Shown here: one piece after another, positions 3 to 63,256 of the stretch | How positions within the stretch are numbered: position 1 is the stretch's first letter | How the letters are laid out: the number at the start of each line of letters is the position of its first letter | IMG/VR virus record: IMGVR_UViG_3300028025_006190 | Location: 1-64,000 of that record | DNA length: 64,000 nucleotides | Source of the DNA: a virus | Reading direction: 5' to 3' (one strand) | The notes under the pieces: model-generated | Databases searched by the model: none | What the model was told of the DNA's origin: nothing | Seen by the model: only the letters and a program-made list of their open reading frames with translations | Translations under genes and position numbers: made by a program

Positions 3-3000
3 TCTGGAGGAGGCGGAGGAACACCTCCACCGCCCCCACCACCCGGAGGAGGGGGAGGGGAGACCCCTCCCGACGGTGGCGGAGGCACGGGACCGACTGA
101 CTCCGGAACTGGCGAGGCTTCATACCGTACGGGTACCCCTGGGGACGTAAATTTTCCTGAAACCGTAATTGTCAAAGATGAGTTCACTGGTGAAGCAGAG
201 CTTTATGACTACATTGACGGTGTTGGTTACGTTGGTCGTGACTCGGGACTCGTGATTAGTGATGAAGATCTCCGTGCTGAGGCGATCTTTGGTAATGTCA
301 CCGACACAAAGAACAACGATGTCACCGTAGGAGACACAGACACAACGTCTACAGAAGATGAAGAGGCCAAAAAGAGAGCCGCAGCCGATGAAGCTAAGGC
401 CGAGGCTGAGAGACAGGCTGCAGAAGCCGAAAGAGCCGCTGAGTCAGAAAGACAGCTCGAAGAAGACCGCAAAAGGAGAGCAGAAAAACTCGAAGCGGAG
501 CGTCAGCGTAATGCCAAGCAGCTTGACATGCCTGTCGATGAGTCTAAGTACGACGTAGAGGGGTGGGAGCGACCAGACCACGATCCGAACCTTGCTCAGG
601 AGCTTGTAGATAATTCCCAAGCCGAGACAGAAAAAATTATAGAAAAGTACGGCATTACTTCACCCGAATATAGAGACCAAGACGACAGAGCAAAGGCACT
701 ACTTACTGCTGCAGGCACTATTAAGAAACTTGCGGAGGCTGTTAAGTTTGAATATCTAACCTCAAGAATCTATCGACTAGGCAACATCGAAGTTGTTTTT
801 TCGAGGGACTACACCCCCGAGGCAATCAAAAAAGTACTGGCGCAGGTAAAAGAACTTCAAGAAAAGTTCCCCATCAACAAGCCCGACGGATCAGTTACCC
901 GTATCTGGGTCCACGACGGCGATGCCAAAGATCTGGCAGGAGGTCTTACTACTGCAAATGGAGACATCATTCTCCCACTTAAGGCTAGTAACCTAAACAA
1001 CCCCGACTTCATCCCCGCACAAAGTCTCCCCTCACGGCAGAATCTGATGCCAGCATTTGTTGAGCTGGCGGACCGGGGCGAGTGGTTCAAGTACCCGCTC
1101 ACACACGAGTGGGGTCACGCTCTCGCTATGGTGCCTGGTGGTCCGTACATCTACAACAACGTTGTACAAGAATTTTATCAATTCCTCAAAGACAACCCAG
1201 ACTTTGCAGAAACTCTTGAGGGCTACGCCAAGAAAAATATTACTGAAGCAACAGCAGAAGTATTTGCTCAGTGGTACCTCCAAAATAATGGCGTCTCGGC
1301 CAGTATGGATATTCCACAAGAAGCCATTGACATCATTCTTAGCAATAAAAAGAAAGCACCCGAAGGCGCTGGAGACCTATCTACCGTTACGCTACCTGCT
1401 GGCTGGGAAATTGGCGATGAGAAAGATATAGACGTACATATCGGTGGCCTGAAGAATCTTATTAAGCTCCAGGAAGACAGGCTAGAAAACCTATCTGGTG
1501 CAGAGCCAGACGCTGTTGTCGCCATCAGTATGGATGTTGGAGAGAAGATTATCGAGCTTGAGGCAATCATCTCGACAATTGAGGACAATAAAGAGTACCT
1601 AAAACCAATAAGTGTCGTGTCATTCAGTGGCGGTCCGATCGCAAAAATAGCCCCAAGATATGGAAGATGGGAATCCAAAAAAGATGGTGTTTTGTTGCTT
1701 GTCGATTCTCGGATGTCAGTTGATCAAATCAACGAGTTCCTTCAAAATGTAGATAACTTACGTAGTAGATTTGCTTTGACTTTCATCAGACCAGAAGACT
1801 CAACCGTATTCATCACTCTCATAGATGCTAAATCACCTGCAAGTGTGGACGCAAACAAGCTCTCCCCAACAGAGGGGACAATCCCATCTATAGGAAACCC
1901 GCTTACTAGTAATCTAGTAATTTTTGCAGATGGTGCATCTACCCTTAGAGATCAACTACGCCTGTCTGCCAATGTTAGAGAAGAGAATCCCTCACATGGT
2001 GACTCTTTTGCTGCACTAAATGAGCAAGGTAAGTGGTATCTGCACGAACTTGTAACCACCTGGGCCCGGAACCTGCCAAACAATGGCAACAGAAGAACAA
2101 TCTCTTCTGACCTGATCAACTCATACATAGTACAAAACGATCTCCCATATGCAGACAAGATAAATAAGAGCATGTCTACTGCAAATGTTTTTGATGAAAT
2201 TTTTGCTGACGCATTCTTCTCTGGTGTGGTTCCCGAGTGGATGCCTAGGATCTTTAATGAAGCATCTATTGCTGCACTCACAGCAGATCACGAAACTTAT
2301 GTACAAAAATCTGTAAAAATATTGCTAAGACTTTCTAACGGTCGTACTGTCCCGAGCCCAACTTCATCCGTACTCAGTAGCAGAGCTAGAAGACTTGTTG
2401 GTGCACTCCCCGGATTTATAGATGTGAGCGAGATTATCCCACGATCCACCACATGGACTCTAGGTATTGATAGCAATGAAATCGAGAAACTCCAGAAGGC
2501 GGCAGTCGAAAGAGAACTGGAAAGATGGAAAAACTACCCAGGAAACTTTAATAGTGGTATTAACATCAATACCATTCGACGTTGGATGAATGAAGAACAT
2601 GAAAAGTTTCATAGAGAAGTAATAAAAACTAGAAACAGATATTCTAGCCCCGGCGGCTCCGTTGTCTCCTTCCCCCCAGAAACTAATCAGGCAGTCGTTG
2701 ATCGGATGCTTAATCTGATCTCGTTCTTGGAAGAAAAAATGCCTATCTCGACGGGCCAAAAAGTTGTATTTTTGAATAGAGAAAGTAAATCAGAGCTGGC
2801 CCACTCATTCTATGGCCCCACCATCGAGGCATATCAAGATGTACACATGTTTGATTCTCAATTTGTGCTCGGTAATACTCTGCCACTACTTGGAGAAACT
2901 GAAAAAACTCCCTTCCACCCGCCGTCTAACTTTGTCCTGCCACAGGACATAACAACAATAATCCATGAGTGGATACACGCAAAAGACACAGACATGCCGG

Positions 3001-6000
3001 GGTCAGCAGACTATGCCTACAGGCCACCAAGATCTAGAAGAGAAAGAGTACTTAGAGCGCAATCAAATAAGTTGCGCAAACTCCTTAATGATAATAGGGG
3101 GTGGGCGAGTAAGTACCTTCCCTCGCGATATTCAGAAAAAACATACATGGAGTTCCTCGCTGAGCTAGGTCAGCAAGTTTTTGCTGAAGACTTCTTTGGA
3201 GCACCTAGAATTAGTCGTCCGCAGGAGCTTACGGACATAATCCGTGAGATGTACTCTCCAGAGGCTCGTGCCGAGGTTGAGGCTGCTCAGGCGCAAGGCA
3301 ATTTGCCAGACCCCGACTCAGAGATGAACATGCCGGGACTTGACAGCACTGCAACTCACTACGTTGCCACAGACGGTAATTATGGGGACGCTAGGGATAT
3401 TGCAATAGTGGATGCGTCTAAGTTTACTAATGACGACTGGGAGACAGTAGAAGCAGCTGACCCAGAAGAGCGCCCCGGTGTGGCTAGCATGCTTGCTTAC
3501 ATGCTCGGCTCTACCGGTACTCCAACACACTACGTGTCTCGGGATGGGAGTTATGGAGACGCTCGCAATATTGTATTTGTTGATGCTTCCATGTTCACCG
3601 AAGGCGACTGGGAAACAATTAATGAAGTGGATCCCAACCTAAGAGGCGAAAGAGCCACACTGCTCGAACAGATGTACAACAATGGGGGCCTCCCATCACC
3701 CGACGACGAGATGAACATGCTCAACGTTGAAGATGAAGATAGTGCCGACACGAACATCTGGGAACCAGTCTGGGAAGAGGTCGGCAGTTCAGAGATCCCC
3801 ACACTTGACCGCACTAGAGGGCAGATTATAAAAGAGTACGCGTCTAAGGTTCTTGGCGAGTCTCTTGTTGAAAAGGGAATTACTCAGGAGCAGCTTGGTG
3901 AGTTCCTCTACCTCAAAGTTATGCCTACGGATGGACTAGATCTTGAGGATATCTACAGACCCCAGGAGGGTGACACAGTTGATGCTGATCTTTCTGCAGT
4001 TATTAAGGTAGATTCCGAAGGTAACTGGAAAATTGAAAAACTGAGTAGATTCCTAGATCGAAACGGTCTAGACACAGGATACGATTTCGGAGCTGTTCCT
4101 CGTGATTTTGTTGATTCCGTGATTGAGGAAAATGCAAAACCAAATGAGACACTGGCTCTCTCTGGAACACCAGACGGACTTCGAGCTCTCGCTATTGCAG
4201 CAGCATCCATTGAGCTAAAAGATTGGGCACAGATTCTTAGTGGATCTGGTCAGGCACTCAGAAAAGACATTCAGCGTGCTGTCATAGAAATGTTCCCGGG
4301 GACTCTCAATGACCCAGACCTAATTAGAGAGTTCAACAACTTTAATATGTCTGCAAAAGAGATTGACCCAGTGACGATGGCTCTTGCCGAGTCTATGTAT
4401 GACATGACCCAAGAGTTTTTCCGTAGCCGGGGCATCTCGAACGTTACTATTTATCGTGGTGCCGGGAACATCCCAGAAGATATTCTTGACAATCTTGATG
4501 ACGCTAATGGAGTTCTTGCCAACCAGCAGCTTGTCACATTCCCGATCTCTTCTTGGACCACGGATCAGGACATGGCCTGGGACTTTGCACAGAGCTCGAG
4601 CGACTCCGTTGTGATGAGACGTAACGTTCCCGTTTCTGAGATCTTTGCCATTCCACTTAACGGTGTTGGAACATACGGCGAGCAGGAGCTTGTCACACTA
4701 GGTGGCACAATCAACGCTGACATCCAGGATTCTTCTCTATTTAGTGAGAACAACTGGCCAGAAGATGTCCCGGTATCGCCAGATGCCGAGATGAATATGC
4801 CTAGCGTTGATGGCGAAGAGCCCTACACGATGTCCTCTAAGTCATTTGATCGGCTGCTCCCACCAGACAGCCTTAACGAAGATGATGATGTTAATCCATA
4901 TCTTATGGAGGTCCCTGAGGCAGAAGAACTTATTCGCACACTCAAAAGTAACCTAGAAGGAAAAACTTTTGGACGGGATGGTCTCACTGTTGGAGAAATA
5001 ACGGTAGAACCATTTGAGTCTGTTGACCGAGATGTTGATGAGCTGGTACAAGGTATTAGGTACTCTTTTGAGGTGCTACAGAACGGAGCACGTGTCGGCT
5101 ATGTTTCTGAGGAAATTTATAGATATGAAGCATTCCCCGAAAAAATATATGAATCATTTAGTGTATTCCTAGAGGCAAAAAGTACTGGATTCACCACCGA
5201 GTGGCGTAAAGCAGCAGATAAGCTACACCGCCAGCTTGGGGTAGATGTGTCTGAAATATATGCTGTGGATGATGGATCTTGGTATTGGGCAATGAACGGC
5301 TATGGGTGGGTCGGAAGCGAAGAAACTCCTAGTCAGCTAGTAACATCTACAAGCGTTATTGATGCTGTTGAACAAGAAATGGACCTAGCAGAAAAAGCTG
5401 GAAGACTCGAAGACTTTAGAGCATTAAAAGAAATTAATGATCAACTTCTTGAAATGAATGGGACTAAACCATTTAACAAGGGAGAATACGTAACTCCTAG
5501 AGATATTGCTTCTCTAGTGTCAGAGGATGGTTCTAGTCTCGGTAGAACTATTATGCTTAACACGCCCTGGAATGCCGTCCTTAATATCCAAGAGGATCTC
5601 CCAGATCCCGGTGCAGAAATGAACATGCCTGACGTTCAGGGTCAAAGCAGCGAGTCAGTTAGTAAATCAAATGCTCCCGAGCCCGCGAGTGATCGCCAGT
5701 CAAAGGATGTCGCTCCTAGAAATGATGGATCCTCAAAGAGCATCGACAAGATTGATGAAATCTACCCAGCCGATATCAAAGACCCGGCCATTCAGATGAT
5801 CTATAACGACGGTGGAGACCAGGTTTTTGGTGAAGAGTCGTTTAGACAGATCAATGAAGTATTTGGTAATCCGAGACACCCAGTAATTATCTATAAAGCT
5901 GTGTCGGACAATGTGAACTCTATTGTCAGAGGAAACTCAGTTACTCTATCTAAGTCCCTCGCTGAGCAACAAGCTAAAGATATGTTTTTTTCAGATTTAG

Positions 6001-7358
6001 ATGAAGAAGAACGGATGTACCCTTTTGGGACAAAAGTTATATCTCGACAGGTTGAAGCTAGAGATGTGTTCACAGATGGCAACTCAATCCTTAACTGGGG
6101 ATATGACCCGATTGACACGCTAGAGCTCCCCGATCAGGTGCCCGCTGAAACACCGGCTGCCGGTACAGTAGACAATTTCCAGGACGGAATCGAACGTATC
6201 TACGATCCTGCATCTGAGCTAGTCCTTGAGGGCGAGTCAGACGTCATGAATGACAGCGCAATTCTTAAGCAAAGTGTTGCTGATCGAATCAGAGACATCA
6301 TGCGTGAGAAAGGCATCACGTGGACTCAGGCACGTGAACTACTACTAAATATGGTACTTGCAGATAAATTAAATATGAGTCAAGGCTCATTTGACGACAG
6401 CTGGCCAGATTTCGAGGACTTCCTTATGGGTGTCTCCCCAGACTATGACGCACAGAATGCCCAATTTGATGATCTAAATGTAGTCACCGCCCAATGGGGA
6501 GAGCCGCAAGTTTGGTCCGTAGATGAGTACACTAGCTGGGCCAAGCGTGCATACAACCTAGATATAGACGAGCGGACTCTAGATGGTCTTAGAGATCTTA
6601 TAAAAAGAGTAGAAGCTGCCTTTAATAAACAAGAATCAGAAAATGATCAACGTATAGGAAGAACCACCACACCAAACTATCGAGGTGCCGTCTACGGAAC
6701 ACCAGAGGCGGAAGATGTTCTTTTCTCTCTGGCAACCTCTGGCCTACTATCTACCTGGGCCTACACCTCGGTAGATGGGGTGATTGCTCCGGCTATGCAA
6801 AGCATTGTTGCAGATATGTTTGGAGTCGAGAACAAAATAGAAGCAGACAATATTGACCGTGATTTTTATGATGAGTATATGGATTTTAAGAATGCAAATC
6901 TAACAACACTCACCGCAGCAATAGAAGCCATGTATGAGTCCACTCAAGAGTTCTTCCGTAGCCAAGGAATTACGCATGTACGGGCGCATCGAGGGATTCA
7001 ACTCTCCCTAGACTCAATGGAAAATGAAGATTTGACTGATTCGGATAAGAAAATACTTGAAGATATAAAACAAGCACAAGCTAATCCCGAGTCCTTTGAT
7101 TTCACACACTATCCGCTCTCGTCTTGGTCATTTGATCCAGACCAGGCAGTTAGATTTGCCAACATGGATCTGACTAAGTTTCTGAGAAGACGTGGTGTAG
7201 TCATGGTAACTATCGTCCCAATCGAAGACATTTTTTCTCTTCCCTATTTCGGCCTCGGGGCCCTAGATGAGTATGAACTTGTTCTTGTTGGAAACCAACT
7301 CAGGCTTGTCCAGATCGTAGATGTCACCCCAGACGAGTACAGAGACTACGAGAACTAA
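3..7358 (+). CDS. Giant polyvalent effector / minor head-associated protein, 5'-truncated by the window edge (zincin metallopeptidase x2-3, tandem repeat module, ADP-ribosyltransferase x2 plus one degenerate ART-like domain, GNAT-like domain)
   Basis: The frame of the 252..7358 ORF stays open to the left edge (SGGGGGTPPPPPPPGGGG...). HExxH motifs: THEWGH (~1101) and IHEWIH (~2961). ART R-S-E triads: TIYRG/SSWT/EQE (4446-4690) and AHRGI/SSWS/EYE (6984-7280). GNAT-like STGF...LGV...AVDDGSWYWAMNGY (5180-5305). It lies directly upstream of the head genes. Confidence 0.8.
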   Translation, partial: SGGGGGTPPPPPPPGGGGGETPPDGGGGTGPTDSGTGEASYRTGTPGDVNFPETVIVKDEFTGEAELYDYIDGVGYVGRDSGLVISDEDLRAEAIFGNVTDTKNNDVTVGDTDTTSTEDEEAKKRAAADEAKAEAERQAAEAERAAESERQLEEDRKRRAEKLEAERQRNAKQLDMPVDESKYDVEGWERPDHDPNLAQELVDNSQAETEKIIEKYGITSPEYRDQDDRAKALLTAAGTIKKLAEAVKFEYLTSRIYRLGNIEVVFSRDYTPEAIKKVLAQVKELQEKFPINKPDGSVTRIWVHDGDAKDLAGGLTTANGDIILPLKASNLNNPDFIPAQSLPSRQNLMPAFVELADRGEWFKYPLTHEWGHALAMVPGGPYIYNNVVQEFYQFLKDNPDFAETLEGYAKKNITEATAEVFAQWYLQNNGVSASMDIPQEAIDIILSNKKKAPEGAGDLSTVTLPAGWEIGDEKDIDVHIGGLKNLIKLQEDRLENLSGAEPDAVVAISMDVGEKIIELEAIISTIEDNKEYLKPISVVSFSGGPIAKIAPRYGRWESKKDGVLLLVDSRMSVDQINEFLQNVDNLRSRFALTFIRPEDSTVFITLIDAKSPASVDANKLSPTEGTIPSIGNPLTSNLVIFADGASTLRDQLRLSANVREENPSHGDSFAALNEQGKWYLHELVTTWARNLPNNGNRRTISSDLINSYIVQNDLPYADKINKSMSTANVFDEIFADAFFSGVVPEWMPRIFNEASIAALTADHETYVQKSVKILLRLSNGRTVPSPTSSVLSSRARRLVGALPGFIDVSEIIPRSTTWTLGIDSNEIEKLQKAAVERELERWKNYPGNFNSGININTIRRWMNEEHEKFHREVIKTRNRYSSPGGSVVSFPPETNQAVVDRMLNLISFLEEKMPISTGQKVVFLNRESKSELAHSFYGPTIEAYQDVHMFDSQFVLGNTLPLLGETEKTPFHPPSNFVLPQDITTIIHEWIHAKDTDMPGSADYAYRPPRSRRERVLRAQSNKLRKLLNDNRGWASKYLPSRYSEKTYMEFLAELGQQVFAEDFFGAPRISRPQELTDIIREMYSPEARAEVEAAQAQGNLPDPDSEMNMPGLDSTATHYVATDGNYGDARDIAIVDASKFTNDDWETVEAADPEERPGVASMLAYMLGSTGTPTHYVSRDGSYGDARNIVFVDASMFTEGDWETINEVDPNLRGERATLLEQMYNNGGLPSPDDEMNMLNVEDEDSADTNIWEPVWEEVGSSEIPTLDRTRGQIIKEYASKVLGESLVEKGITQEQLGEFLYLKVMPTDGLDLEDIYRPQEGDTVDADLSAVIKVDSEGNWKIEKLSRFLDRNGLDTGYDFGAVPRDFVDSVIEENAKPNETLALSGTPDGLRALAIAAASIELKDWAQILSGSGQALRKDIQRAVIEMFPGTLNDPDLIREFNNFNMSAKEIDPVTMALAESMYDMTQEFFRSRGISNVTIYRGAGNIPEDILDNLDDANGVLANQQLVTFPISSWTTDQDMAWDFAQSSSDSVVMRRNVPVSEIFAIPLNGVGTYGEQELVTLGGTINADIQDSSLFSENNWPEDVPVSPDAEMNMPSVDGEEPYTMSSKSFDRLLPPDSLNEDDDVNPYLMEVPEAEELIRTLKSNLEGKTFGRDGLTVGEITVEPFESVDRDVDELVQGIRYSFEVLQNGARVGYVSEEIYRYEAFPEKIYESFSVFLEAKSTGFTTEWRKAADKLHRQLGVDVSEIYAVDDGSWYWAMNGYGWVGSEETPSQLVTSTSVIDAVEQEMDLAEKAGRLEDFRALKEINDQLLEMNGTKPFNKGEYVTPRDIASLVSEDGSSLGRTIMLNTPWNAVLNIQEDLPDPGAEMNMPDVQGQSSESVSKSNAPEPASDRQSKDVAPRNDGSSKSIDKIDEIYPADIKDPAIQMIYNDGGDQVFGEESFRQINEVFGNPRHPVIIYKAVSDNVNSIVRGNSVTLSKSLAEQQAKDMFFSDLDEEERMYPFGTKVISRQVEARDVFTDGNSILNWGYDPIDTLELPDQVPAETPAAGTVDNFQDGIERIYDPASELVLEGESDVMNDSAILKQSVADRIRDIMREKGITWTQARELLLNMVLADKLNMSQGSFDDSWPDFEDFLMGVSPDYDAQNAQFDDLNVVTAQWGEPQVWSVDEYTSWAKRAYNLDIDERTLDGLRDLIKRVEAAFNKQESENDQRIGRTTTPNYRGAVYGTPEAEDVLFSLATSGLLSTWAYTSVDGVIAPAMQSIVADMFGVENKIEADNIDRDFYDEYMDFKNANLTTLTAAIEAMYESTQEFFRSQGITHVRAHRGIQLSLDSMENEDLTDSDKKILEDIKQAQANPESFDFTHYPLSSWSFDPDQAVRFANMDLTKFLRRRGVVMVTIVPIEDIFSLPYFGLGALDEYELVLVGNQLRLVQIVDVTPDEYRDYEN
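3355..3675 (+). repeat. Two tandem ~55-aa repeats (THYVxxDGxYGDARxIxxVDASxFTxxDWET...) inside the giant ORF
   Basis: THYVATDGNYGDARDIAIVDASKFTNDDWETVE versus THYVSRDGSYGDARNIVFVDASMFTEGDWETIN. Confidence 0.9.
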
Positions 7359-8062: not shown

Positions 8063-11000
8063 ATGGCTAATTTTGTTGGCAGATCTGGATCACTTCTGCT
8101 TTTCGTCCTAGACGACAGAGGTGTAGTTGTCGATTCTGATGTAAACCTTATTGTTGCATCCGGCAAGGCTGAGCCTCTGCAAAGCTCTCGCAGCTGGGCC
8201 CCCGGAGAGTTCTCCGAAGAATCCCATGACCTAGCAGACTCGGGTCTTTCTTTTGTTGACCTATCTATTACAGCAGACGGTAGTCGGATGTACACCATCC
8301 CCAAAGCCGCCCAAGCTGAAGCTAAGAAAGCTCTTGAGTGGAGAAAAGAAGAAGGCCGTGGCGGTACGTCTGTCGGTATCAACACTGCTCGTACGCTTGC
8401 TAAGGGTGGACAGATCGGTATCGAGAAGGTCCGCCACATTTCAAAGTATTTTGCTCGTCACGAAGTTGACAAAAAGGGCAAGGGCTGGAAACCAGCTCAA
8501 GACGGGTTCCCATCCAACGGCCGTATCGCGTGGGCACTCTGGGGTGGTGACGCTGCATGGCGTTGGGCCCGTGCCATCGTTGAGCGTGAAAACAAAAAAT
8601 CCATTACAGCAGACGGATACGGCATTGCCGAGGGTAGATATGACTATGGCTACCCCACAGCTCCATACGAGCTTGATGACTTTAAGGTCGCCCAAGAGGC
8701 CGAAGACATGGTCATACCAGAGTTCCTTGCTCGAGTTCGCCTCGACGGATCTGGTTTTGATCGACTCTACAAAATTGATCTCGACGGCAATGTCTATGTC
8801 TGGGATGACGGTGTTTGGGATAATCTCGGCTACAGCGGAAAAGATATCTGGGTCTATGACAATGAGCTCGACGACCCCGCAGATGCCAGAGTAGAGAAGT
8901 CGCACATTGTTATTGACCCGTCCTCTGCTATTACGATTGCAGCTCGACTCCTCAATAACCCGTATAGATTTGTTACACTGGAACAAATTGACGCAGCGGA
9001 AGCAGATCTTGCTAACGAAGCAATCCCACACATTGACTGGGAGATCGTTGAGCGCGGAATGCTCGCTGCCGGTGAAATAGATCCGGGGGACGGCATCTAC
9101 ACCGAAGAGGAGCGTTCCGCGAACGCCTCGAAACAGGTCCGTGACGCCACGGGCAAGTTTACAACAACCGGTTCTAGAGTTATGATCGGCGGCGACGCAA
9201 GAAGAGGTCTCGGTCAGATCACTAAAATAAATCCCGGACAAAATACCGTTGAGGTCAAACTAGATAACGGCAAGACCGTCACTGTTCCCGGTAACGCTGT
9301 AGAGGACGCTCCTGATGAGCAGTTTGACTCAACGGCTGGCGGACCAGCTGTGTCGTCTAGAATTGATACGAGCGGAATTCTTGGTGAGCCTAGAACACCA
9401 ATTAATAGCGTTAAAGCTCAGCTACCTGGGACTCTCCCAGCTATGACTGACGGTGACCTAAAAGAGATGCTCTCCAATTGGCCAGCATGGGTAAACAAGC
9501 AACGATCTGAGTTCAAGCCGGCATCTTCGAGAGGGCCTGTCCCGGTTCAAGGCAAGAACAGCCTTGATATCGGTAACTGGGGTCGTTCTTTCGAGAAAGA
9601 GACTGGTAAGCAGCTCATCAAGAATGCCTACGACCACCCGCTACTGAACAGATGGCTGAATAGTCAAAATACTGCCGGCGAGTACCCAAACAGAGCTTGG
9701 TACAACCCAATTACGGCAGCTGTTAAGGGAGAGCCCGAAAAGGCTGTATCGCCAGAGACAACAGATGTTCAACCTATTTACATGGCCGTTGTTGACAAGG
9801 ATGACCCTAGAGCAGTTCTCGAGCTCGTAGCTATTGTTCCTGCTAGCGACAAGTCTAGCTCCGCGATGACGTACAAGCGAAATGAAGGTAAGTGGGTCCG
9901 CGACACAAAGACCCTTCAGGATCTTAAGTCGGCTACACCACCACCAGTTGTTCCTCTTGACACAGACACACTCCAGGATGTCCTCAAGCAGGTTGACCAG
10001 ACTCAAGGTGTAACAGCTTCTCTCATTATGTCTGTCCTCTTTGGGCCAACGCTTCTCGCTGCTGGCGGCCTAGACCGCAACCGTGGGAACGCAGAGAAGC
10101 TTAGAAGATATTGGACAGTTGGTAAGGGTGCTGCAAAGATTCGCTGGGGCACACCTGGAGACTGGAAGCGTTGCGTACGTCACCTATCTAAGTACATGGG
10201 TGTTCGCTCGAAGGGCTACTGCCAGCTACGCCACAAGGAAGTTACTGGTGTCTACACGGGCAGCAAACTTAACCCCGGTAACGAGAACTCGATCAACGAA
10301 GCTGGCTCTGGTATTCCCGAAGAAGTACTGTACGGGATGCCCGAGAGCATGATTCAATATGAAATCCCCAAGATCGATCTTGAGATGACTCTGGATGAGA
10401 TTATCCGAGAAGAAGATGATCTATATGACGACAGCTGGGACCCCGAGGAAGAAATTGTAGAACAGCTCAGGGTTCTTGGATCATGCGATGACAGGCAGTA
10501 CGCACTTCTTGCAGCTGGTGGCCTAGATCGTAACCAAGGCAAGGCCGAGGAGCTTCGTCGGTATTGGACTGTCGGCAAGGGTGGAGCAAAAATCCGCTGG
10601 GGAACTCCAGGGGATTGGACTCGTTGTGTTCGGAACCTGTCTAAGTACCTAGGAACACGCTCGAAGGGGTATTGCGCCCTCCGACACAAAGAGGTTAATG
10701 GAGTCTGGCCAGGAGAGCAGAACACGAACGAGTATGTCATCATGGCATCCGGCACACGAGTCTCCGCTGATCAAGTTCTTCGCAGTGAAGAGGAGTTCAT
10801 TGCGCTCTCCGAACTGTCTGTCCGATCTGACGTACTAAAGGCTCGAGTAGCTGGTGCATACGGCTTTGTAAAGAGGGCCGGACAAGATGTAAATATCCCA
10901 ACAAACTCCTTCTTCTTCCACAACAGAGCTGAAGTCCCTAGTGGGATGGAAAACACCCTGAAGAGGGAAGAGCCGTTTGATGAGGGTGAGGTTTACATTG

Positions 11001-11197
11001 AGGACCTTATTCCATCGCAGAAAACAGTAAACATGCGCAGAGTATCGTCCGTCTCCGGAGCAGATAAGCCAGTCATGGTTCTTATTACTGAAAACGGCCC
11101 GGTACTGATTGATGGTCACCACAGGACGGTATCTCGGATGATGTCCGGATCCAACACTATCCCCGCAAAGATATACAAGATGAGTGAGACCTACTGA
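8063..11197 (+). CDS. Multidomain head-associated protein (conserved phage head domain, SH3/KOW-like segment, duplicated Cys/His domain, C-terminal ParB/Srx-like domain)
   Basis: GRIAWALWGGDA domain seen in phage head morphogenesis proteins; duplicated GGLDRNxGxAExLRRYW...KIRWGTPGDWxRC...KGYCxLRH; C-terminal DLIPSQ...LIDGHHR ParB-like motif; coupled to the protease gene (TGATG). Confidence 0.75.
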   Translation: MANFVGRSGSLLLFVLDDRGVVVDSDVNLIVASGKAEPLQSSRSWAPGEFSEESHDLADSGLSFVDLSITADGSRMYTIPKAAQAEAKKALEWRKEEGRGGTSVGINTARTLAKGGQIGIEKVRHISKYFARHEVDKKGKGWKPAQDGFPSNGRIAWALWGGDAAWRWARAIVERENKKSITADGYGIAEGRYDYGYPTAPYELDDFKVAQEAEDMVIPEFLARVRLDGSGFDRLYKIDLDGNVYVWDDGVWDNLGYSGKDIWVYDNELDDPADARVEKSHIVIDPSSAITIAARLLNNPYRFVTLEQIDAAEADLANEAIPHIDWEIVERGMLAAGEIDPGDGIYTEEERSANASKQVRDATGKFTTTGSRVMIGGDARRGLGQITKINPGQNTVEVKLDNGKTVTVPGNAVEDAPDEQFDSTAGGPAVSSRIDTSGILGEPRTPINSVKAQLPGTLPAMTDGDLKEMLSNWPAWVNKQRSEFKPASSRGPVPVQGKNSLDIGNWGRSFEKETGKQLIKNAYDHPLLNRWLNSQNTAGEYPNRAWYNPITAAVKGEPEKAVSPETTDVQPIYMAVVDKDDPRAVLELVAIVPASDKSSSAMTYKRNEGKWVRDTKTLQDLKSATPPPVVPLDTDTLQDVLKQVDQTQGVTASLIMSVLFGPTLLAAGGLDRNRGNAEKLRRYWTVGKGAAKIRWGTPGDWKRCVRHLSKYMGVRSKGYCQLRHKEVTGVYTGSKLNPGNENSINEAGSGIPEEVLYGMPESMIQYEIPKIDLEMTLDEIIREEDDLYDDSWDPEEEIVEQLRVLGSCDDRQYALLAAGGLDRNQGKAEELRRYWTVGKGGAKIRWGTPGDWTRCVRNLSKYLGTRSKGYCALRHKEVNGVWPGEQNTNEYVIMASGTRVSADQVLRSEEEFIALSELSVRSDVLKARVAGAYGFVKRAGQDVNIPTNSFFFHNRAEVPSGMENTLKREEPFDEGEVYIEDLIPSQKTVNMRRVSSVSGADKPVMVLITENGPVLIDGHHRTVSRMMSGSNTIPAKIYKMSETY
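10052..10715 (+). repeat. Two copies of a ~70-aa domain (LLAAGGLDRN...RHKEVxGVxxG)
   Basis: Near-identical protein copies start at ~10052 and ~10506, separated by an acidic spacer. Confidence 0.9.
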
Positions 11198-14196
11198 TGA
11201 CAACAAACTACAACATCTCCCAAAAAGTGCTTGACGCACTAATTGCTTCAGGAAGTATCTCTGGGTCAAAGTTTGTCATTCCCCTTGTTATCCCTGAGGG
11301 AGTTGAGTCTGGTGACGGACGCATGTTCAAGAAGGGCTCGATCTCTATGCGGGATCTTCCTCTTCCACTTTTGTGGCAGGTCAAGACCGGAGCTGGCCAC
11401 GACGGCTCTGTTGTTGTGGGTCGGATCGATCATATGGAAAGAACTGACGAAGGCATTGGTAATGCCTACGGCTACTTTGATTCCGGAGAATATGGTCAAG
11501 AAGCCGAAAGACTAGTCAGAGAAGGATTCATCCGGGGAGTTTCTGCGGACATGGATCAGTTCGAGGCGCAAGAAACAGAAGACGAAATTACTGCCGCTGA
11601 GCTTGCAAAAAACGAAAAACCCAAAAAAATTGAAAAAGAAAAACTTACCATAAATAAGGCCCGCGTAATGGCGGTTACAATAGTACCTAAGCCCGCATTT
11701 CAAGAATGCAGTATTTCGCTTGCAAACGATGACGGGGACGTTTCTCAGGAGGAAACTATGATTCCAGATGGAATTTACATCGAAGATGTAGACCCAAATG
11801 AAGCCGAAGCAGTTGTTGCTAGTGGCATGATTGCTGGTGCAATCCCCACAGAGCCACCTGCTGATTGGTTCAACAACCCCAAGCTCAGTGAGCCGACCCC
11901 TCTTACGGTTGACAACCAGGGCCGTGTGTTTGGTCACATCGCTGCTTGGCACGTTGATCACATTGGCATGGCATTCGGAACCCGCCCACCTCGTAGCCGT
12001 AGCAACTACGGATACTTCCACACAGGCGTCTGCCGTACCGCCGAGGGTGCAGACATCCCTGTTGGCCAGCTAACTCTCGCCGGTGGTCACGCTGATATTA
12101 CAGCATCTGCCGCTGAGGCCGTCAAGCACTACGATGACACAGCATCCGCTGTAGCCGATGTTCACGCTGGTGAAGATCAGTATGGTATCTGGGTTGCCGG
12201 TGCACTTCGACCTGGTGTATCTCCTGAGCAGGTACGCGCACTTCGTGCCTCGGCTCCTTCCGGTGACTGGCGTCCAATTAAGGGTGGCCTCGAGCTTGTT
12301 GCTGTTTGTCAGGTAAACGTTCCTGGGTTCCCGATCGCACGCGCACGTGTTGCTTCTGGTCAGGTTATGGCTCTGGTTGCAGCTGGTGCCCACGCACTTG
12401 CCAAGCTTCGGACTAGCCCACTAGACGAACTCTCTGCCCGCATCCAGAAGCTGGAGACAGACAAGACTCAGGCTCTAGCTACTCAGCAGGATGAGCTCCG
12501 TGCTCGCTTTGCATCGATGACAGCAGAGTTCTCAGCCAAGCCAGAGCCAGTAGTTGCTGGTGGATCTCCCGACATGGCAGCAGCCTTAGAGCAGTTGCTT
12601 GCAGATAGCGTTGCGTACTCGTTCAAGGCTCAGGGCTACCACTGGAACGTCAAGGGTCAGGACTTCGCTCAGTACCACGAACTATTCGGTGAGGTCTACT
12701 CAGACGTTTACGGATCCATCGACTCAATTGCCGAGAGCATGCTCAAGCTAGGGTACGACGCTCCATTTAATATTGGACAGTGGGCCTCGCAAAACAGCAT
12801 CGGTAACGGTGGGGTAACCTCCACATCTTGCCAGGCCATGGCTTATGACCTCTACATAGGTAGCGAGCAGATGGTTGCACTTCTCAAGGGTGTGTTCGAC
12901 ATTGCTAACGCAATGAACGAGCAAGGGGTTGCTAACTTCCTCGCCGAGAGAATTGAATCTCAGCAGAGATGGTCATGGCAGCTTGGTGCTTCTTCTGCAG
13001 AGTACAAGCAAGAAAAAGAAGAGTACATGGAGATGGAAGCCGCCGAGTACGAGCCTGGTGGCTACGAGTATGGCGAAGATATGGATGCCTACGAGTATGC
13101 ATTCTCTAACCTAGAGAAGAATGGTGTGTACGAGGCATCAATCATTGCCAGTGCTTCGGACCCCCAGACCCGTGTAGATGCATTCTTTGCTGTCGCTGAG
13201 TTCGCTAAATTCACTGACGATGAGCGTAAAGAATTGGCAAAGAAAGGTTGGGCTATGCCAGATGGTGCATACCCGATCCGTAACGAGTCTGATCTAAAGA
13301 ATGCAATCAAAGCTTACGGCCGTGCATCGCTCAAGGAGCAGGTCGCCACTAAGAAGCACATCATCAAGCGTGCGCGGGCTCTTGGCCTTGTTGCCATGCT
13401 CCCCGATGTGTGGCACATCAAGAATGCATCCACTTCGGAGTTCAGCATCGACAACATGCGTGAAGCTGCAGCCAAGCGGTCTAAAGACCTTAGTGATCCT
13501 GTCTTCCAGCTCCGTGCTCGCGTTGCTTCTGCCAAGTCAGATCTAGAAGATGCCCTAGAAGTGGCTCGAAAGTCTGGAAATCTAGAAGCTGTTCGTCAGG
13601 CTGAGAAGGACATCAGGGAGATCAACAAAGATCAAACTGAGATACCAACTACGCCAGGTGTAGTTGAGCGTGATGAATTTGGTCGTATCAAGTTCACCGC
13701 AAAGACTCAGCCGAGAGACGCTCGTGGTCGATTCCGCGACGTTCTTGCACGCCTCAAGTCTAATCTCGGTACCTCTGGTAGCCAGAATGTTGTTGCCAAG
13801 ATTAAGGCCGCTGAGAACCTAGACAACACCGGAAACTATGCCGGAGCCGTTGAGGCAGTTGCTGACCTCATTAATACAATTGACCGCCTAGATACTGGTG
13901 CTCTAAACAAGGAATCCCTTGAGAACATCACACGTACCACTACCGATCTCGGTAAGGTCATTGCAAATCTTCCCCTCCCATTCTCTAACCAAGCACAGAA
14001 GGTTCGTTACAGTGACCTACCTCCTGCGCTCCAAGACCTGATGAAAAACATGATCACTAAGGTCGAGGAAAAGATTGGACAGGAAGACGCGGATATTGCA
14101 ACGCAAGAGCTCCGTGGATTTATGTCAGGGTCTGACGTTTATAGTCAGGGCGAGGTTTCGTCCCAGATGAATAAATTGCTCAGATTGCTTACATAA
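11197..14196 (+). CDS. Capsid maturation (prohead) protease polyprotein with internal Dps/ferritin-like and DUF6582-like domains
   Basis: N-terminal EGVESGDGR...LPLPLLWQ...GHDGSVVVGRI...RGVSAD...PAF is typical of actinophage HK97-type proteases. Dps signature HWNVKGxxFxxxHELF...D..AE at 12574-12996. ERKELAKKGWAMPDGAYPIRNESDLKNAI domain at ~13210-13410. Directly upstream of the capsid gene. Confidence 0.8.
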   Translation: MTTNYNISQKVLDALIASGSISGSKFVIPLVIPEGVESGDGRMFKKGSISMRDLPLPLLWQVKTGAGHDGSVVVGRIDHMERTDEGIGNAYGYFDSGEYGQEAERLVREGFIRGVSADMDQFEAQETEDEITAAELAKNEKPKKIEKEKLTINKARVMAVTIVPKPAFQECSISLANDDGDVSQEETMIPDGIYIEDVDPNEAEAVVASGMIAGAIPTEPPADWFNNPKLSEPTPLTVDNQGRVFGHIAAWHVDHIGMAFGTRPPRSRSNYGYFHTGVCRTAEGADIPVGQLTLAGGHADITASAAEAVKHYDDTASAVADVHAGEDQYGIWVAGALRPGVSPEQVRALRASAPSGDWRPIKGGLELVAVCQVNVPGFPIARARVASGQVMALVAAGAHALAKLRTSPLDELSARIQKLETDKTQALATQQDELRARFASMTAEFSAKPEPVVAGGSPDMAAALEQLLADSVAYSFKAQGYHWNVKGQDFAQYHELFGEVYSDVYGSIDSIAESMLKLGYDAPFNIGQWASQNSIGNGGVTSTSCQAMAYDLYIGSEQMVALLKGVFDIANAMNEQGVANFLAERIESQQRWSWQLGASSAEYKQEKEEYMEMEAAEYEPGGYEYGEDMDAYEYAFSNLEKNGVYEASIIASASDPQTRVDAFFAVAEFAKFTDDERKELAKKGWAMPDGAYPIRNESDLKNAIKAYGRASLKEQVATKKHIIKRARALGLVAMLPDVWHIKNASTSEFSIDNMREAAAKRSKDLSDPVFQLRARVASAKSDLEDALEVARKSGNLEAVRQAEKDIREINKDQTEIPTTPGVVERDEFGRIKFTAKTQPRDARGRFRDVLARLKSNLGTSGSQNVVAKIKAAENLDNTGNYAGAVEAVADLINTIDRLDTGALNKESLENITRTTTDLGKVIANLPLPFSNQAQKVRYSDLPPALQDLMKNMITKVEEKIGQEDADIATQELRGFMSGSDVYSQGEVSSQMNKLLRLLT

Positions 14197-14326
14197 AAAT
14201 AATGTAATATTAGTTATTGGGTGTAGTGCCTCCACATAAAAGTGTGCGGAAGTCCCTATATCTCAGACTAACCAAAGATGTGCGGAAAGGTTCCGTGCAT
14301 ACTTACTGGCCCTAAGGAGAGGTACA

Positions 14327-16273
14327 GTGGACCACATCAAATCACAGCTGGACATGCTAGCTGAGCTCGACGACACACAGGTCGAAGATCTTCAGAACAG
14401 TATTGTCACTGAGTTTGAGTCGATGGAACAAAGCGACCCCACTCCAGAGTCAGTAGATGCCATGACAACCCTAGCGGACATGCTTGAAACAGTCCGTGGC
14501 GAGGTGTCACGTCGTGAAGTTGAGGCGCAGGAGCTTGCTGCTCGTGCGTCCGAGGCTGCCGACCGTGTACACAACGCAGAGGGAACAGAACAGGAGGAGG
14601 CTCCTATGGAGGAGACCCCAATGGAGGAAGAGACAGAAGCTCCGATGACCGAAGACATGCCTGAAGAGGACATGATGGAGGAAGACGAGAAGAAGGTTGT
14701 TCCTGCGGAAGCATCGACTGACGTGGAGGAGGCAGCCGAGTTTGCATCGGACTCCGAATCTGCAGAAGTAGAGAGCGTTGAACCAGTGACCGAAACAACA
14801 ACTGAGGTTGTTGTTGAAGACGCTGTAGAGCTTTCTACCGAAACAACAGAGGCTGAGGCTGAGGTAGTAGAGGAGACAATTGTCGCCGCTATCGAGGCCG
14901 AGGTTGACACACCAGCTGAAGCAGAAGCTTCAGTTGTAGAAGAAACAACTATTGAGCCTGAATCGGCTCAGGAAGAGGCACCCGTGACCGCCGCAGCAGA
15001 AGAGGCCTTCGAGGCCCCAGCTGACCGTCGTTTCGTAGCACAGGTTGTCGAGACACCCGTGGCAATCACTGCGGGTGCTGACATTCCAGGCTACACAGCT
15101 GGCAGCACAATTGAATCAATGAGCGACGTTGCAGTTGCGATGGAGAAGCGTCTCCACTCGCTACGCCGCGTCAACGGTGGAGATGGTGAGCAGCACATTG
15201 TTGCTTCTATCGCTACCCAGTACCCTTCGGATCGTATCCTTGGTACTGACCCAGAAGAGAACCGTCAGAAGATTGAGAACGTTGTTGGAGCAGAGGCGCT
15301 TGTCGCTTCGGGTGGTTACGCCACTCCGCTTCAGGTTCGTTACGATGTCTTTGGTCTCGGTACAGCAGCACGTCCCGTTCGTGACGCGCTTCCTCGTTTC
15401 CAGGCAGACCGTGGTGGTATCCGCTACGTAACTCCTCCAGTACTTAGCTCATACGCTAACGCTGTTGGTGTCTGGACAAACGCGACCGATACAACACCTG
15501 AAGCAAACACCAAGACAAGCCTTACTGTTACGGCAGCCCAGGAGCAGACAGCATACACAGACGCTGTTACTCTGCAGATGCAGTTCGGTAACTTGTTTAG
15601 CCGTGCGTACCCAGAGCTTCTGGCCCGCCACAACGAGCTTGGTCTAATCCAGCACGCTCGTGAGGCAGAGCAGAACATCCTGAGCCGCATCGGTACTGCT
15701 TCGACGGCTGTTACAACCACAAGCCTCATCGGCTTTGGTCGTGACTTCCTCGTTCAGATCAAGCGGGCCGCGTCGGCTTACCGTACGCGTCACCGTATCG
15801 ACCCAAACACACAGCTTCGTGCGATCATCCCTTCGTGGGTGTACGACGCTATGTCGGCTGACTTGACCCTGGCTATGCCTGGTGACTCAACAATCAGCGT
15901 GGGTGCTTCGGAGATCAACGGCTACCTCGCTTCGTCGAACGTATCGCTCGTTGCTTCGCTCGATGGTACGCAGTTCGCTTCGCAGTCGGGTTCGGGTGCT
16001 GCTCTCCAGGAGTTCCCAGACTCGTTCGTTTGGTACCTCTTCGCTGAGGGTTCGTTCATCTTCCTCGATGGTGGAACACTTGACCTCGGAATCATCCGTG
16101 ACTCCGGTCTTGTCGGCACCAACGACTACAAGATGTTCGTTGAGACCTTCGAGGGCGTTGCCTTCGTCGGTACCGAGTCGCTTGCTATTACGTCGACCAT
16201 CTCGGTCAACGGTGTAGCTGCAGCTCTCCGCGACACAACTGGTGGCGCTACTGCTGCCGCCGTCGAGTACTAA
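14327..16273 (+). CDS. Major capsid (hexamer) protein with N-terminal acidic scaffold-like region
   Basis: Strong AAGGAGAGG RBS and strongly biased codon use. A Glu/Ala-rich N-terminal part is followed by LVASGG...RGGIRY...GGTLDLGIIRDSxLxxTNDYxxFxETFE, as in actinophage major capsid proteins. Confidence 0.85.
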   Translation: MDHIKSQLDMLAELDDTQVEDLQNSIVTEFESMEQSDPTPESVDAMTTLADMLETVRGEVSRREVEAQELAARASEAADRVHNAEGTEQEEAPMEETPMEEETEAPMTEDMPEEDMMEEDEKKVVPAEASTDVEEAAEFASDSESAEVESVEPVTETTTEVVVEDAVELSTETTEAEAEVVEETIVAAIEAEVDTPAEAEASVVEETTIEPESAQEEAPVTAAAEEAFEAPADRRFVAQVVETPVAITAGADIPGYTAGSTIESMSDVAVAMEKRLHSLRRVNGGDGEQHIVASIATQYPSDRILGTDPEENRQKIENVVGAEALVASGGYATPLQVRYDVFGLGTAARPVRDALPRFQADRGGIRYVTPPVLSSYANAVGVWTNATDTTPEANTKTSLTVTAAQEQTAYTDAVTLQMQFGNLFSRAYPELLARHNELGLIQHAREAEQNILSRIGTASTAVTTTSLIGFGRDFLVQIKRAASAYRTRHRIDPNTQLRAIIPSWVYDAMSADLTLAMPGDSTISVGASEINGYLASSNVSLVASLDGTQFASQSGSGAALQEFPDSFVWYLFAEGSFIFLDGGTLDLGIIRDSGLVGTNDYKMFVETFEGVAFVGTESLAITSTISVNGVAAALRDTTGGATAAAVEY

Positions 16274-61311: not shown

Positions 61312-62262
61312 ATGACAGGCGTAACTCCGGAGACCTTAGTTCTTACTTCTGAAGGTTATCGGGAGATTTTATCACTAACTGGTTCTCCATTTTTAGTGTG
61401 GAATGGCGGGGAATACACTCCAGCAGTTGCGCAAAAACTAGCTGAACAACAAAAAGTTATTCGGATAGAGCTTGTTTCTGGTACTGAAATTGAGTGTGCA
61501 GCAGACTTTGAATTTCGGATCCAACGTGACTACTACGTCACTGCAGTGCATAACCAGGAAGCGAGATACCTGGCTCCCGGTGATCGACTCATCAAGGGTT
61601 GGTATCCAGTAGTTCCGGGTGGGGCTGAAGAGTTTCCCTACTCATATACACACGGCTACTACTCCGGAGCTGAGAAGTTTCGACTGGGAGACAAAGTTCT
61701 TGCAAGATCTGCAGTCTACGGAGTTAGGCGGCAGTCTCTACAACTTCTACAACTAAATACAGAACTAGATCAAAAAAGAAGTCTTAAGTTTTTAGACAGT
61801 ATGCCTGAAGACTATGAAATCCCCCTCGATTTTAGATACTCACTCGAGACAAAGCTGGAGTGGCTAGCTGGACTTTTTGATTCTGGTCTTATCAAAAGAA
61901 AAGTGGGAATCAGGCCGATCTGGGATATTTACTCAGAAAATTATGACTTCCTAAAAAGACTGAAACTATTCAGTCATACGCTTGGCGGAGACGCTCGAGT
62001 AATAAAAAATAGTGATCTTGGAAGAGCTCACTACACTTTTCGTTTGGCCAATACGTGGGTGCAGAACCTAAGAAAAATGAATATCCCCGTAGTTAACCAC
62101 TCGTTCCCCGAGATCAACTACACCAGAAGAAGCATTGATTATCCGAAGATAGCTCAAGTAATTGATGACTACAGATACTCAGACATATACAACATCACAC
62201 AAGAAAACAAAGACACGGTTGTCCTCAACGGCATCCTTGTTCCAAACAACTCAGAAAGGTAA
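61312..62262 (+). CDS. Free-standing, degenerate intein (Hint plus LAGLIDADG-like) without exteins
   Basis: Block A-like GVTPETLVLTSEGYREI...VWNG; block B-like IECAADFEF; L.PGD.L; WLAGLFDSG; block F/G-like DIYNITQ...VLNGILVPN. Confidence 0.75.
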   Translation: MTGVTPETLVLTSEGYREILSLTGSPFLVWNGGEYTPAVAQKLAEQQKVIRIELVSGTEIECAADFEFRIQRDYYVTAVHNQEARYLAPGDRLIKGWYPVVPGGAEEFPYSYTHGYYSGAEKFRLGDKVLARSAVYGVRRQSLQLLQLNTELDQKRSLKFLDSMPEDYEIPLDFRYSLETKLEWLAGLFDSGLIKRKVGIRPIWDIYSENYDFLKRLKLFSHTLGGDARVIKNSDLGRAHYTFRLANTWVQNLRKMNIPVVNHSFPEINYTRRSIDYPKIAQVIDDYRYSDIYNITQENKDTVVLNGILVPNNSER

Positions 62263-62266
62263 CACC

Positions 62267-63256
62267 ATGGGAATCCTCGGAAAAGGAATCCAGGAGGGCC
62301 TCCTCCTCAAGCCAGTCAAATACCAGTGGGCAATGGATCTGTACGACCAGGCCGTAGCGAACACGTGGTTCCCTAACGAAATTCAGCTCGGAGAAGATAT
62401 TGCCGACTTCAAGAAGATGTCTGAGGAAGAGCAGCACGCCATCACATTCTTGATGTCGTTCTTTAACCCCTCGGAGCTGATTGTAAACAAGGCTCTTGCC
62501 TTTGGCGTGTACCCATATCTGAACGCACCCGAGTGCCACCTGTACCTCGCGAAGCAGATGTGGGAAGAAGCAAACCACTGCATGTCGTTCGAGTACGTTC
62601 TCGAAACCTTCCCCGTTGATCGCGCAGAAATCTACAACCAACACGTCTCGGTTCCCAGCATCAAAGCCAAGGAAGACTTTGAGGTCAAGTTCATCACGCG
62701 CATGACCGAAGAGACTCTTGACATTGAGACCGTAGAAGGCAAGCAGGACTTCGTCCGTAACCTTGTCGCTTACTCGGTCATCATGGAGGGCATCTGGTTC
62801 TACTCGGGCTTCATGGTGGCGCTCAGCTTCCGCCAGCGCAACCTGCTGCGTAACTTTGGTTCGCTCGTTGACTGGATTGTTCGTGACGAGAGTCTGCACC
62901 TCAAGTTTGGTGTCAACCTTGTTGTGACCATCCTGGACGAGAACCCCGACATCGTGACTGAAGAATTTGCTGCTGAGATCAAGCAAATGATTTTGGACGC
63001 TGTCGACATGGAGACGGCGTACAACAAGGATCAGTTCCCCAATGGAATCCTCGGTCTAAATGCTGACTACGCTACGCAGTACACCAAGTACCTTGCAGAC
63101 CGTCGTCTTGAGGAGCTCGGCTTTGGCCCGCACTACAACGTGACAAACCCCGCAAAGTGGATGGCAGCAGCCAACGATACTTTGCAGTTGGTCAACTTCT
63201 TTGAATCAACAAACACTTCTTACGAAGTTAACGCTACATCATCTAGCAAGCACTAG
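62267..63256 (+). CDS. nrdB: Ribonucleotide reductase beta subunit with class Ic-type signature
   Basis: WFPNEI, EEANH, MEGIWFYSGF, RDESLH and NFFE...Y motifs; GAAAGG RBS before ATG 62267. Confidence 0.95.
   Translation: MGILGKGIQEGLLLKPVKYQWAMDLYDQAVANTWFPNEIQLGEDIADFKKMSEEEQHAITFLMSFFNPSELIVNKALAFGVYPYLNAPECHLYLAKQMWEEANHCMSFEYVLETFPVDRAEIYNQHVSVPSIKAKEDFEVKFITRMTEETLDIETVEGKQDFVRNLVAYSVIMEGIWFYSGFMVALSFRQRNLLRNFGSLVDWIVRDESLHLKFGVNLVVTILDENPDIVTEEFAAEIKQMILDAVDMETAYNKDQFPNGILGLNADYATQYTKYLADRRLEELGFGPHYNVTNPAKWMAAANDTLQLVNFFESTNTSYEVNATSSSKH

Follow-up and report, generated by a model that had tools for sequence, protein, structure and literature searches.

Dps domain of the head polyprotein

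The 64,000-nt stretch of viral DNA analysed here (positions 1 to 64,000 of the IMG/VR virus record IMGVR_UViG_3300028025_006190; hereafter the window) carries, next to its major capsid protein gene, an open reading frame (ORF) for a head polyprotein of 999 amino acids (aa), in which a Dps (mini-ferritin) domain stands between an S78-like protease and a scaffold-like tail. The record, from an uncultured actinophage-like virus, is a fragment of 76,977 b, estimated to be 45% complete, and the window also codes for tail genes, a DNA polymerase and a primase. Its nearest deposited relatives are the Actinomycetia phage DSL-LC01, metagenome-assembled from Dishui Lake (PMC10611076), and cultured Microbacterium phages such as Pumpernickel. 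An earlier note on this DNA had proposed that the polyprotein holds an intact Dps domain of about 140 aa between the motifs VVAGG and IIASA, and that this domain is loaded into the procapsid, cut free and protects the viral DNA.

The translation of positions 12550-13155, in frame within the polyprotein ORF (11197-14196), begins with VVAGG and ends with IIASA, and aa 458-599 of the ORF match the Pfam Ferritin family (PF00210) with an E-value of 9.5e-14 and 52 bits, the cut-off being 24.5. In a genome search the domain scored 52.5 bits and was the single Dps in the record. It further matches phrog_3636 (E 5e-22), and a sequence search of the PDB gave 70 matches at E ≤1, nearly all of them Dps, headed by P. 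aeruginosa PA0962 Dps (8ff9; E 1.7e-15 over 139 residues). The match to Dps is far beyond chance.

The ferroxidase ligands are H482 (nt 12640), H494 (12676), D509 (12721) and E513 (12733), with the exact spacing H-x11-H-x14-D-x3-E that the earlier note had read; W483 directly follows the first ligand His, and the C-terminal helix typical of Dps, also noted before, lies at aa 580-596 (NFLAERIESQQRWSWQL). An AlphaFold 2 (AF2) model of the domain, built on a 47-sequence alignment, has a predicted local distance difference test score (pLDDT) of 87.4 and contains helices A, B, a short BC, C and D (7-33, 39-66, 75-81, 94-121 and 125-148 in model numbering). The top matches in a Foldseek search of the PDB with this model are all subunits of Dps dodecamers, at a root-mean-square deviation of 1.4-1.9 Å over 139-149 columns and a target template modelling (TM) score of 0.83-0.91. 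By fold, ligands and score the domain is thus a member of the Dps family, for which a dodecamer and ferroxidase activity are predicted. None of H482, W483, H494, D509 and E513 varies in the 83 fused homologues found by a word-index search or in the 90 long representatives of the wider survey described below, which argues for selection on metal chemistry, beyond the fold alone.

The fragment between the two putative cut sites (aa 455-651) has 197 aa, a mass of 21.8 kDa, an isoelectric point (pI) of 4.06 and a net charge of about -22, with 9 Lys and Arg residues against 31 Asp and Glu, and it has no Lys-rich DNA-binding tail of the E. coli type. Such a tail is not universal in the Dps family. 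The acidic pI and the missing basic tail make DNA binding in the manner of E. coli Dps unlikely. The stretch after the Dps core (aa 600-648, positions 12994-13140) stands out by its many Glu, Tyr and Met residues (EYMEMEAAEYEPGGYEYGEDMDAYEYAF). This acidic tail has a pI of 4.05, with 15 Asp and Glu in 52 aa, and is modelled at low pLDDT with two short helices; its composition varies among homologues, and a short EPY.MVFSA-like element just 5' of the downstream motif is kept.

Dps as an optional cassette

Judged by comparison with homologous proteins, the Dps domain is an optional cassette of about 200 aa in the linker between the S78-like protease and the scaffold-like tail. The homologues in DSL-LC01 and Pumpernickel are 60-66% identical to the window polyprotein over the protease and about 40-43% identical over the C-terminal modules; neither has a Ferritin match, and in both alignments the part of the window protein between about aa 455 and about aa 648 is skipped. 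The protease family comprises more than 4,160 proteins at E ≤1e-20, and most members at about 70% identity are without Dps. The presence or absence of the insert among protease homologues, which the earlier note had suggested surveying, is patchy, and the insert occupies a single slot. This slot can be measured as the distance between the conserved elements NVPGFPI and DGSYPI, which is 258-328 aa in all 40 Dps-bearing proteins. Of the 86 cassette-less proteins that could be measured, 85 have a distance of 82-126 aa; the lone longer slot (P0330, 202 aa) holds a tandem duplicate of the PDGSYPIRN module. The two size classes point to a clean insertion, and no alternative cargo was found in the slot among the measurable cassette-less homologues. 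On a tree of the protease domain, the Dps forms fall into 3 clades and require 5 Fitch changes, a count from a sample biased towards Dps-bearing forms. The patchy tree together with the single slot suggests that the cassette has been gained, lost or exchanged repeatedly at one place.

Two side observations concern individual homologues. Three of them (P0030, P0032 and P0041) have a metallothionein-like Cys-rich stretch (e.g. GGGCGCCPACSSMCEGSCCANC) immediately behind the upstream motif and ahead of the Dps core, which may serve the cassette as a second metal-binding element. A close Dps-less protease homologue at NCBI (P0253, 1,357 aa) is labelled as coming from a Cetobacterium sp. metagenome-assembled genome, probably because a phage contig was binned with a bacterial one.

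Motifs flanking the cassette

The resemblance of VVAGG and IIASA to motifs between other head modules, pointed out in the earlier note, is real and non-random. With the pattern [ILVM][ILVTM]A[SAGD][GA], and expectations taken from shuffled sequences, the three head ORFs (8063-16273) together have 17 matches where about 1.1 are expected, an enrichment of about 15-fold; the individual counts are 7, 7 and 3, against 0.2, 0.5 and 0.4 expected, and the matches in the capsid ORF lie at aa 220, 247 and 325. Twelve other ORFs have 4 matches where about 5 are expected, so that tail and replication genes are at background. The motif is probably a specificity signature of this protease family.

Among 41 homologues of the same architecture, an upstream motif occurs within 53 aa before Dps in 38 (chance about 2%), and a strict downstream motif within 90 aa after Dps in 26 (chance about 4%), with relaxed variants in most of the others, while the linker sequence around the motifs drifts freely. 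No motif falls within the Dps core. The slot contains at least one motif in 38 of 40 Dps forms and at least two in 29 of 40; it is devoid of any motif in 68 of 86 cassette-less forms. Since the motifs flank Dps and are mostly absent from cassette-less slots, the cassette appears to bring its own site on each side, as would be expected if it were cut free from both neighbours.

The protease-scaffold polyprotein and its neighbours

The features of the head region are collected in Table 1.

Table 1. Features of the head region, with coordinates in the window
Feature	Coordinates	Strand	Evidence
Head polyprotein gene, 999 aa (protease, Dps cassette, helical module, scaffold-like tail)	11197..14196	+	ORF and domain matches
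S78-like prohead serine protease fold, aa 25-175, H68/S116/E170	11269..11721	+	PF04586 17.9 bits, phrog_3244
Highly conserved second domain, aa 220-400, followed by long helix, aa 408-445	11854..12531	+	phrog_18402 2e-55, many invariant columns
Upstream flanking motif VVAGG, aa 452-456, putative maturation cleavage site	12550..12564	+	Motif kept upstream in 38/41 homologues
Dps core, aa 458-599: helices A, B, BC, C, D; four ferroxidase ligands; W483	12568..12993	+	Pfam, PDB, AF2, Foldseek
Acidic Glu/Tyr/Met-rich cassette tail, aa 600-648	12994..13140	+	pI 4.05, low pLDDT
Downstream flanking motif IIASA, aa 649-653, putative cleavage site	13141..13155	+	Strict motif in 26/41 homologues
Conserved helical module PDG(A/S)YPIRN...LKNAI.AYGRA, aa 654-760	13156..13476	+	In all same-architecture homologues and cassette-less relatives
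Basic helical scaffold-like tail, aa 761-999	13477..14193	+	43% identity to Pumpernickel gp84 C-terminus
Major capsid protein with acidic N-terminal extension	14327..16273	+	phrog_777 2.9e-72
Upstream 1044-aa head-associated multidomain ORF, 1-nt overlap with polyprotein start	8063..11197	+	7 motif matches, in-frame fusion in homologues

The N-terminal protease assignment draws on several matches of graded strength. Residues 55-174 match Peptidase_S78 (PF04586) at 17.9 bits, below the gathering cut-off of 21 bits, and the N-terminal ~450 aa match phrog_3244 (1e-7), phrog_859 (4e-100) and, over aa 221-446, phrog_18402 (‘head maturation protease’, 2e-55). Across 134 homologues, H68 and S116 never vary and E170 is present in 132; by comparison with HK97 gp4, we take these three residues to be catalytic. 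When the protease N-domain was searched against PDB sequences, only chance matches to caspases came up. The label of prohead protease polyprotein is reasonable on these grounds. In the AF2 model of the full-length protein, the N-terminal protease fold is beta-rich (pLDDT 60-80), the second domain has a fold without a confident model, and the scaffold-like tail is all-helical; the low pLDDT at aa 437-457 and 602-658 suggests that Dps sits within a disordered linker. For the helical module at aa 654-760, no Pfam or PHROG family was found. Residues 652-999 have a pI of 8.8, and in other phages the scaffold-like tail is a separate ORF directly 5' of the capsid gene (locus L015; the 183-aa ORF of DSL-LC01).

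The major capsid gene is the next ORF after the polyprotein, a synteny kept in three IMG/VR loci (L009, L010 and L029). On the other side, the 1044-aa ORF ends at 11197, where the polyprotein starts, so that the two overlap by 1 nt in different frames (11195-11199); many homologues have it joined in frame with the protease in a single protein of 1600-1750 aa. A role of this ORF as portal, which at 12 copies would have given one Dps 12-mer per virion, was considered and dropped, as it has no portal match. An internal start at M460, which would give a nested Dps-scaffold product like Nu3, was likewise considered: the in-frame ATG of M460 at the Dps start is preceded, at a distance of 9 nt, by a weak GGTGGA (12559-12576), and the start is unsupported, the position being Leu in 64 of 83 homologues.

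The habitat suggested by the earlier note, sunlit water, was not borne out: the only sequencing run that contains the whole stretch is labelled as a subsurface metagenome, and is maybe its source. Runs with partial matches (0.2-0.64 of words) are labelled ‘metagenome’ or come from lake-water metagenomes, and those with less than 0.2 of words were left out as habitat evidence.

Distribution of head-associated Dps

An exhaustive HMMER search with the Dps domain returned 3,113 representatives at E ≤1e-3. Among the 150 closest Dps representatives, 119 are longer than 200 aa and thus fused. The partners in 90 long representatives include Peptidase_S78 (25), Peptidase_S78_2 of the XkdF type (3), Mu-like_Pro (1) and Phage_Mu_F (2), as well as DUF5824, Hva1_TUDOR, zeta toxin, AAA_33 kinases, HAD phosphatase and RelA_SpoT. 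These domain matches show relatives of the window Dps joined to prohead proteases of three different families and also to MuF, and the fusion is widespread, extending to hundreds of metagenomic proteins and at least three protease families. A description of a Dps-prohead protease fusion was not found in the literature searched, which yielded work on stand-alone phage Dps and on encapsulins. A single-protein scan of genome contigs gave three ordinary cellular Dps only (31-34% identity) and no prophage or host lead.

In a survey of 80 IMG/VR loci, head-associated Dps takes four forms. In the first, Dps lies inside a large polyprotein, as in the window; the second is a 600-aa Dps-S78 protease encoded between the portal and capsid genes; the third is a Dps-DUF5824 fusion directly after the portal (phrog_776; L044-type loci); and the fourth is a minimal Dps gene of 149-157 aa directly after the portal, ahead of a giant polyvalent protein. 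In phages of about 125-135 kb (L021, L013, L027 and L079), a Dps of 153-157 aa stands between the phrog_776 portal and a polyvalent protein of 1,470-2,655 aa; the polyvalent protein of the L021-type loci is homologous to window ORF 252-7358. In a 302-aa protein of another locus (L018:7803-8708), the PDGSFPI...GRA helical module precedes Dps (in the window it follows), which suggests that Dps and the helical module travel together in either order.

Proposed mechanism and alternative roles

Dps is probably a mobile cargo cassette of the head-maturation polyprotein, loaded into the procapsid and cut free there. Loading with excision is the most economical reading of the fusion to three protease families and MuF, the fixed place among head modules and the two motifs that the cassette brings along. 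In the proposed sequence of events, the polyprotein would co-assemble into the procapsid via its C-terminal helical, basic modules, and the protease would then cut at VVA/GG and IIA/SA, freeing a fragment of about 22 kDa. The folded fragment or its 12-mer would be too large for the capsid pores, and would stay in the head beside the DNA.

Dps proteins oxidize Fe2+ with H2O2 and store the mineral, which suppresses Fenton damage. The retained Dps is accordingly proposed to oxidize Fe2+ with H2O2 or O2, store the mineral and limit Fenton damage to the packed genome, the protection being chemical (removal of Fe2+ and H2O2) as opposed to coating of the DNA. Of the DNA protection that the earlier note had envisaged, chemical removal of iron and peroxide is therefore the plausible part, and binding as in E. 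coli Dps the unlikely one, with the pI of 4.06 and no Lys-rich tail. The whole chain of loading, release and a protective role in the virion is put forward tentatively, with a chance that we set somewhat below even.

Several observations weigh against this proposal. The motifs are read as cleavage sites from their enrichment and position only, and the AF2 model of the whole polyprotein is a poor one, whose pLDDT of 54 did not suffice for fold searches. Judging from its scattered occurrence on the protease tree, the cassette is dispensable. The free-standing Dps genes of 149-157 aa have almost no extensions for capsid targeting (tails of 6-17 aa), so packaging may not be general; and the scaffold-like tail is a separate gene in many homologues, which makes the proposed loading route specific to the window architecture. 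Finally, no fused form was found among the cultured phages of INPHARED, where the best match is the free-standing Dps of Synechococcus phage S-SRM01 (28% identity).

Packaged Dps might instead work after ejection into the host, which it would enter with the DNA and the neighbouring polyvalent effector proteins, as an iron and peroxide buffer round the incoming genome or as an iron supply to early enzymes such as a Mn/Fe ribonucleotide reductase. This is unlikely, although parts of the gene survey are in line with it: in related phages the Dps gene lies between the portal and the giant polyvalent protein, and fusions of Dps with modules such as zeta toxin, AAA_33 kinases, RelA_SpoT, HAD phosphatase and MuF occur as well. 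The genome further encodes a ribonucleotide reductase small subunit (R2) at 62162-63256 (+; PF00268, E 1e-75), which reads NPSE... and EEANHCMSF. The marks of class Ic are Glu at the first ligand position, where class Ia has Asp, and Phe in place of the class Ia radical Tyr, and with these Glu/Phe substitutions the subunit looks like a class Ic (Mn/Fe) R2. The class Ic enzyme invoked in the earlier note is thus plausible, and its bearing on the role of Dps is circumstantial. Against a role after ejection stands the Dps 12-mer itself: it is very stable and has a diameter of about 9 nm, and the tail tube of a siphophage would not let its mineral core through; passage through the tail would require unfolded monomers.

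A second alternative makes Dps a cytoplasmic auxiliary stress gene, the fusion serving only to ensure late co-expression, with the domain either released or left attached without useful encapsidation. Free-standing phage Dps genes do exist, in S-SRM01 and others, and have been read in this way (PMC8008677), and the minimal stand-alone forms lack obvious targeting extensions. Yet Dps has repeatedly become joined to MuF and to prohead proteases of at least three families, each time within a head module, which speaks against a cytoplasmic role, and late expression would come at a poor time to protect replicating DNA. Prohead proteases, moreover, are normally active only inside the procapsid. We regard this explanation as doubtful.

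The remaining idea, that Dps is mainly an oligomerization hub whose 12-mer clusters twelve protease/scaffold chains for core nucleation or protease activation, with iron chemistry secondary, is quite improbable: the N- and C-termini of Dps point outwards, so that a 12-mer could display fused partners, PDB entries using Dps as a display scaffold occur among the sequence matches, and the domain is modelled between coiled-coil and scaffold-like helices, but every fused form keeps all four metal ligands, for which a pure scaffold would have no need, assembly in close relatives proceeds without a cassette, and the flanking sites would imply release and not a lasting bridge.

Significance

If loading and release of Dps occur as proposed, the window would describe a natural viral cargo-loading system in which a ferroxidase is put into true phage heads by the protease-scaffold machinery. 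To our knowledge, the only HK97-fold shells known to hold Dps or ferritin cargo are those of encapsulins, the presumed descendants of phage capsids. The proposal would also provide a new route for virions to resist oxidative decay, which limits the persistence of virus particles in water, and would bear on the idea of phage particles carrying iron. The cassette with its flanking sites would, in addition, offer a design that could be used directly to bring foreign proteins into the capsids of phages. A more speculative extension, to which we give little credence at present, is that the capsids of many uncultured aquatic tailed phages could act as encapsulin-like iron and peroxide compartments, with Dps 12-mers mineralizing iron in the DNA-filled head; such virions would be self-protecting, would form a hidden particulate iron pool, and the phages themselves would represent a surviving link from phage capsids to encapsulins loaded with ferritin.

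Comparison with known systems

The domain shares with cellular Dps (P. aeruginosa PA0962, 8ff9; V. cholerae, 3iq1; B. subtilis MrgA, 2chp; and Listeria innocua Dps) the fold including the BC-loop helix, the ligands, their spacing and the Trp. It differs in being only 17-27% identical to these proteins and in lying inside a 999-aa viral polyprotein, whereas they are free proteins of about 150-160 aa; it is also very acidic and without a basic tail. The proposed passenger loading resembles that of lambda C/Nu3, Mu I/Z and the T4 internal proteins, in which passengers enter the procapsid on the protease or scaffold and are trimmed by the prohead protease. We know of no fused or nested protease-scaffold gene, or internal protein of the T4 type, that carries a ferritin-family enzyme.

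Free-standing phage Dps (phrog_3636), as in S-SRM01, Gratiaviridae and Lactobacillus phages, is likewise virus-encoded with intact ligands, and uncultured relatives place it directly after the portal. The genes of Gratiaviridae and Lactobacillus phages have been read as cytoplasmic stress or auxiliary genes (PMC8008677). By contrast, the window Dps lies within a protease-scaffold protein, with putative cut sites on both sides. Among close relatives, Pumpernickel gp84 and the DSL-LC01 capsid maturation protease share with the window the order of the genes leading up to the capsid gene, and are without the ~200-aa Dps cassette and its flanking motifs; in Pumpernickel the upstream ORF is fused in frame to the protease, unlike in the window. 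A survey of phage polyvalent proteins (Iyer et al. 2017, PMC5512222) has no mention of Dps, ferritin or iron. Polyvalent proteins combine several enzymatic domains related to conflict in a single polypeptide delivered from the head; the window ORF joins one enzyme cargo to morphogenetic modules, and some relatives join Dps with zeta toxin, kinase or MuF.

The closest functional parallel would be the encapsulins with ferritin-like cargo (e.g. M. xanthus EncA/B/C), which likewise hold a ferritin-superfamily enzyme in an HK97-fold shell. Here, the shell would be the DNA-filled capsid of a tailed phage, as opposed to a non-viral shell without portal, tail or genome, and the cargo is Dps, not Flp, EncFtn or IMEF. 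Loading would proceed by fusion to the protease and scaffold followed by proteolysis, and not by a C-terminal cargo-loading peptide, with Dps placed internally in the polyprotein.

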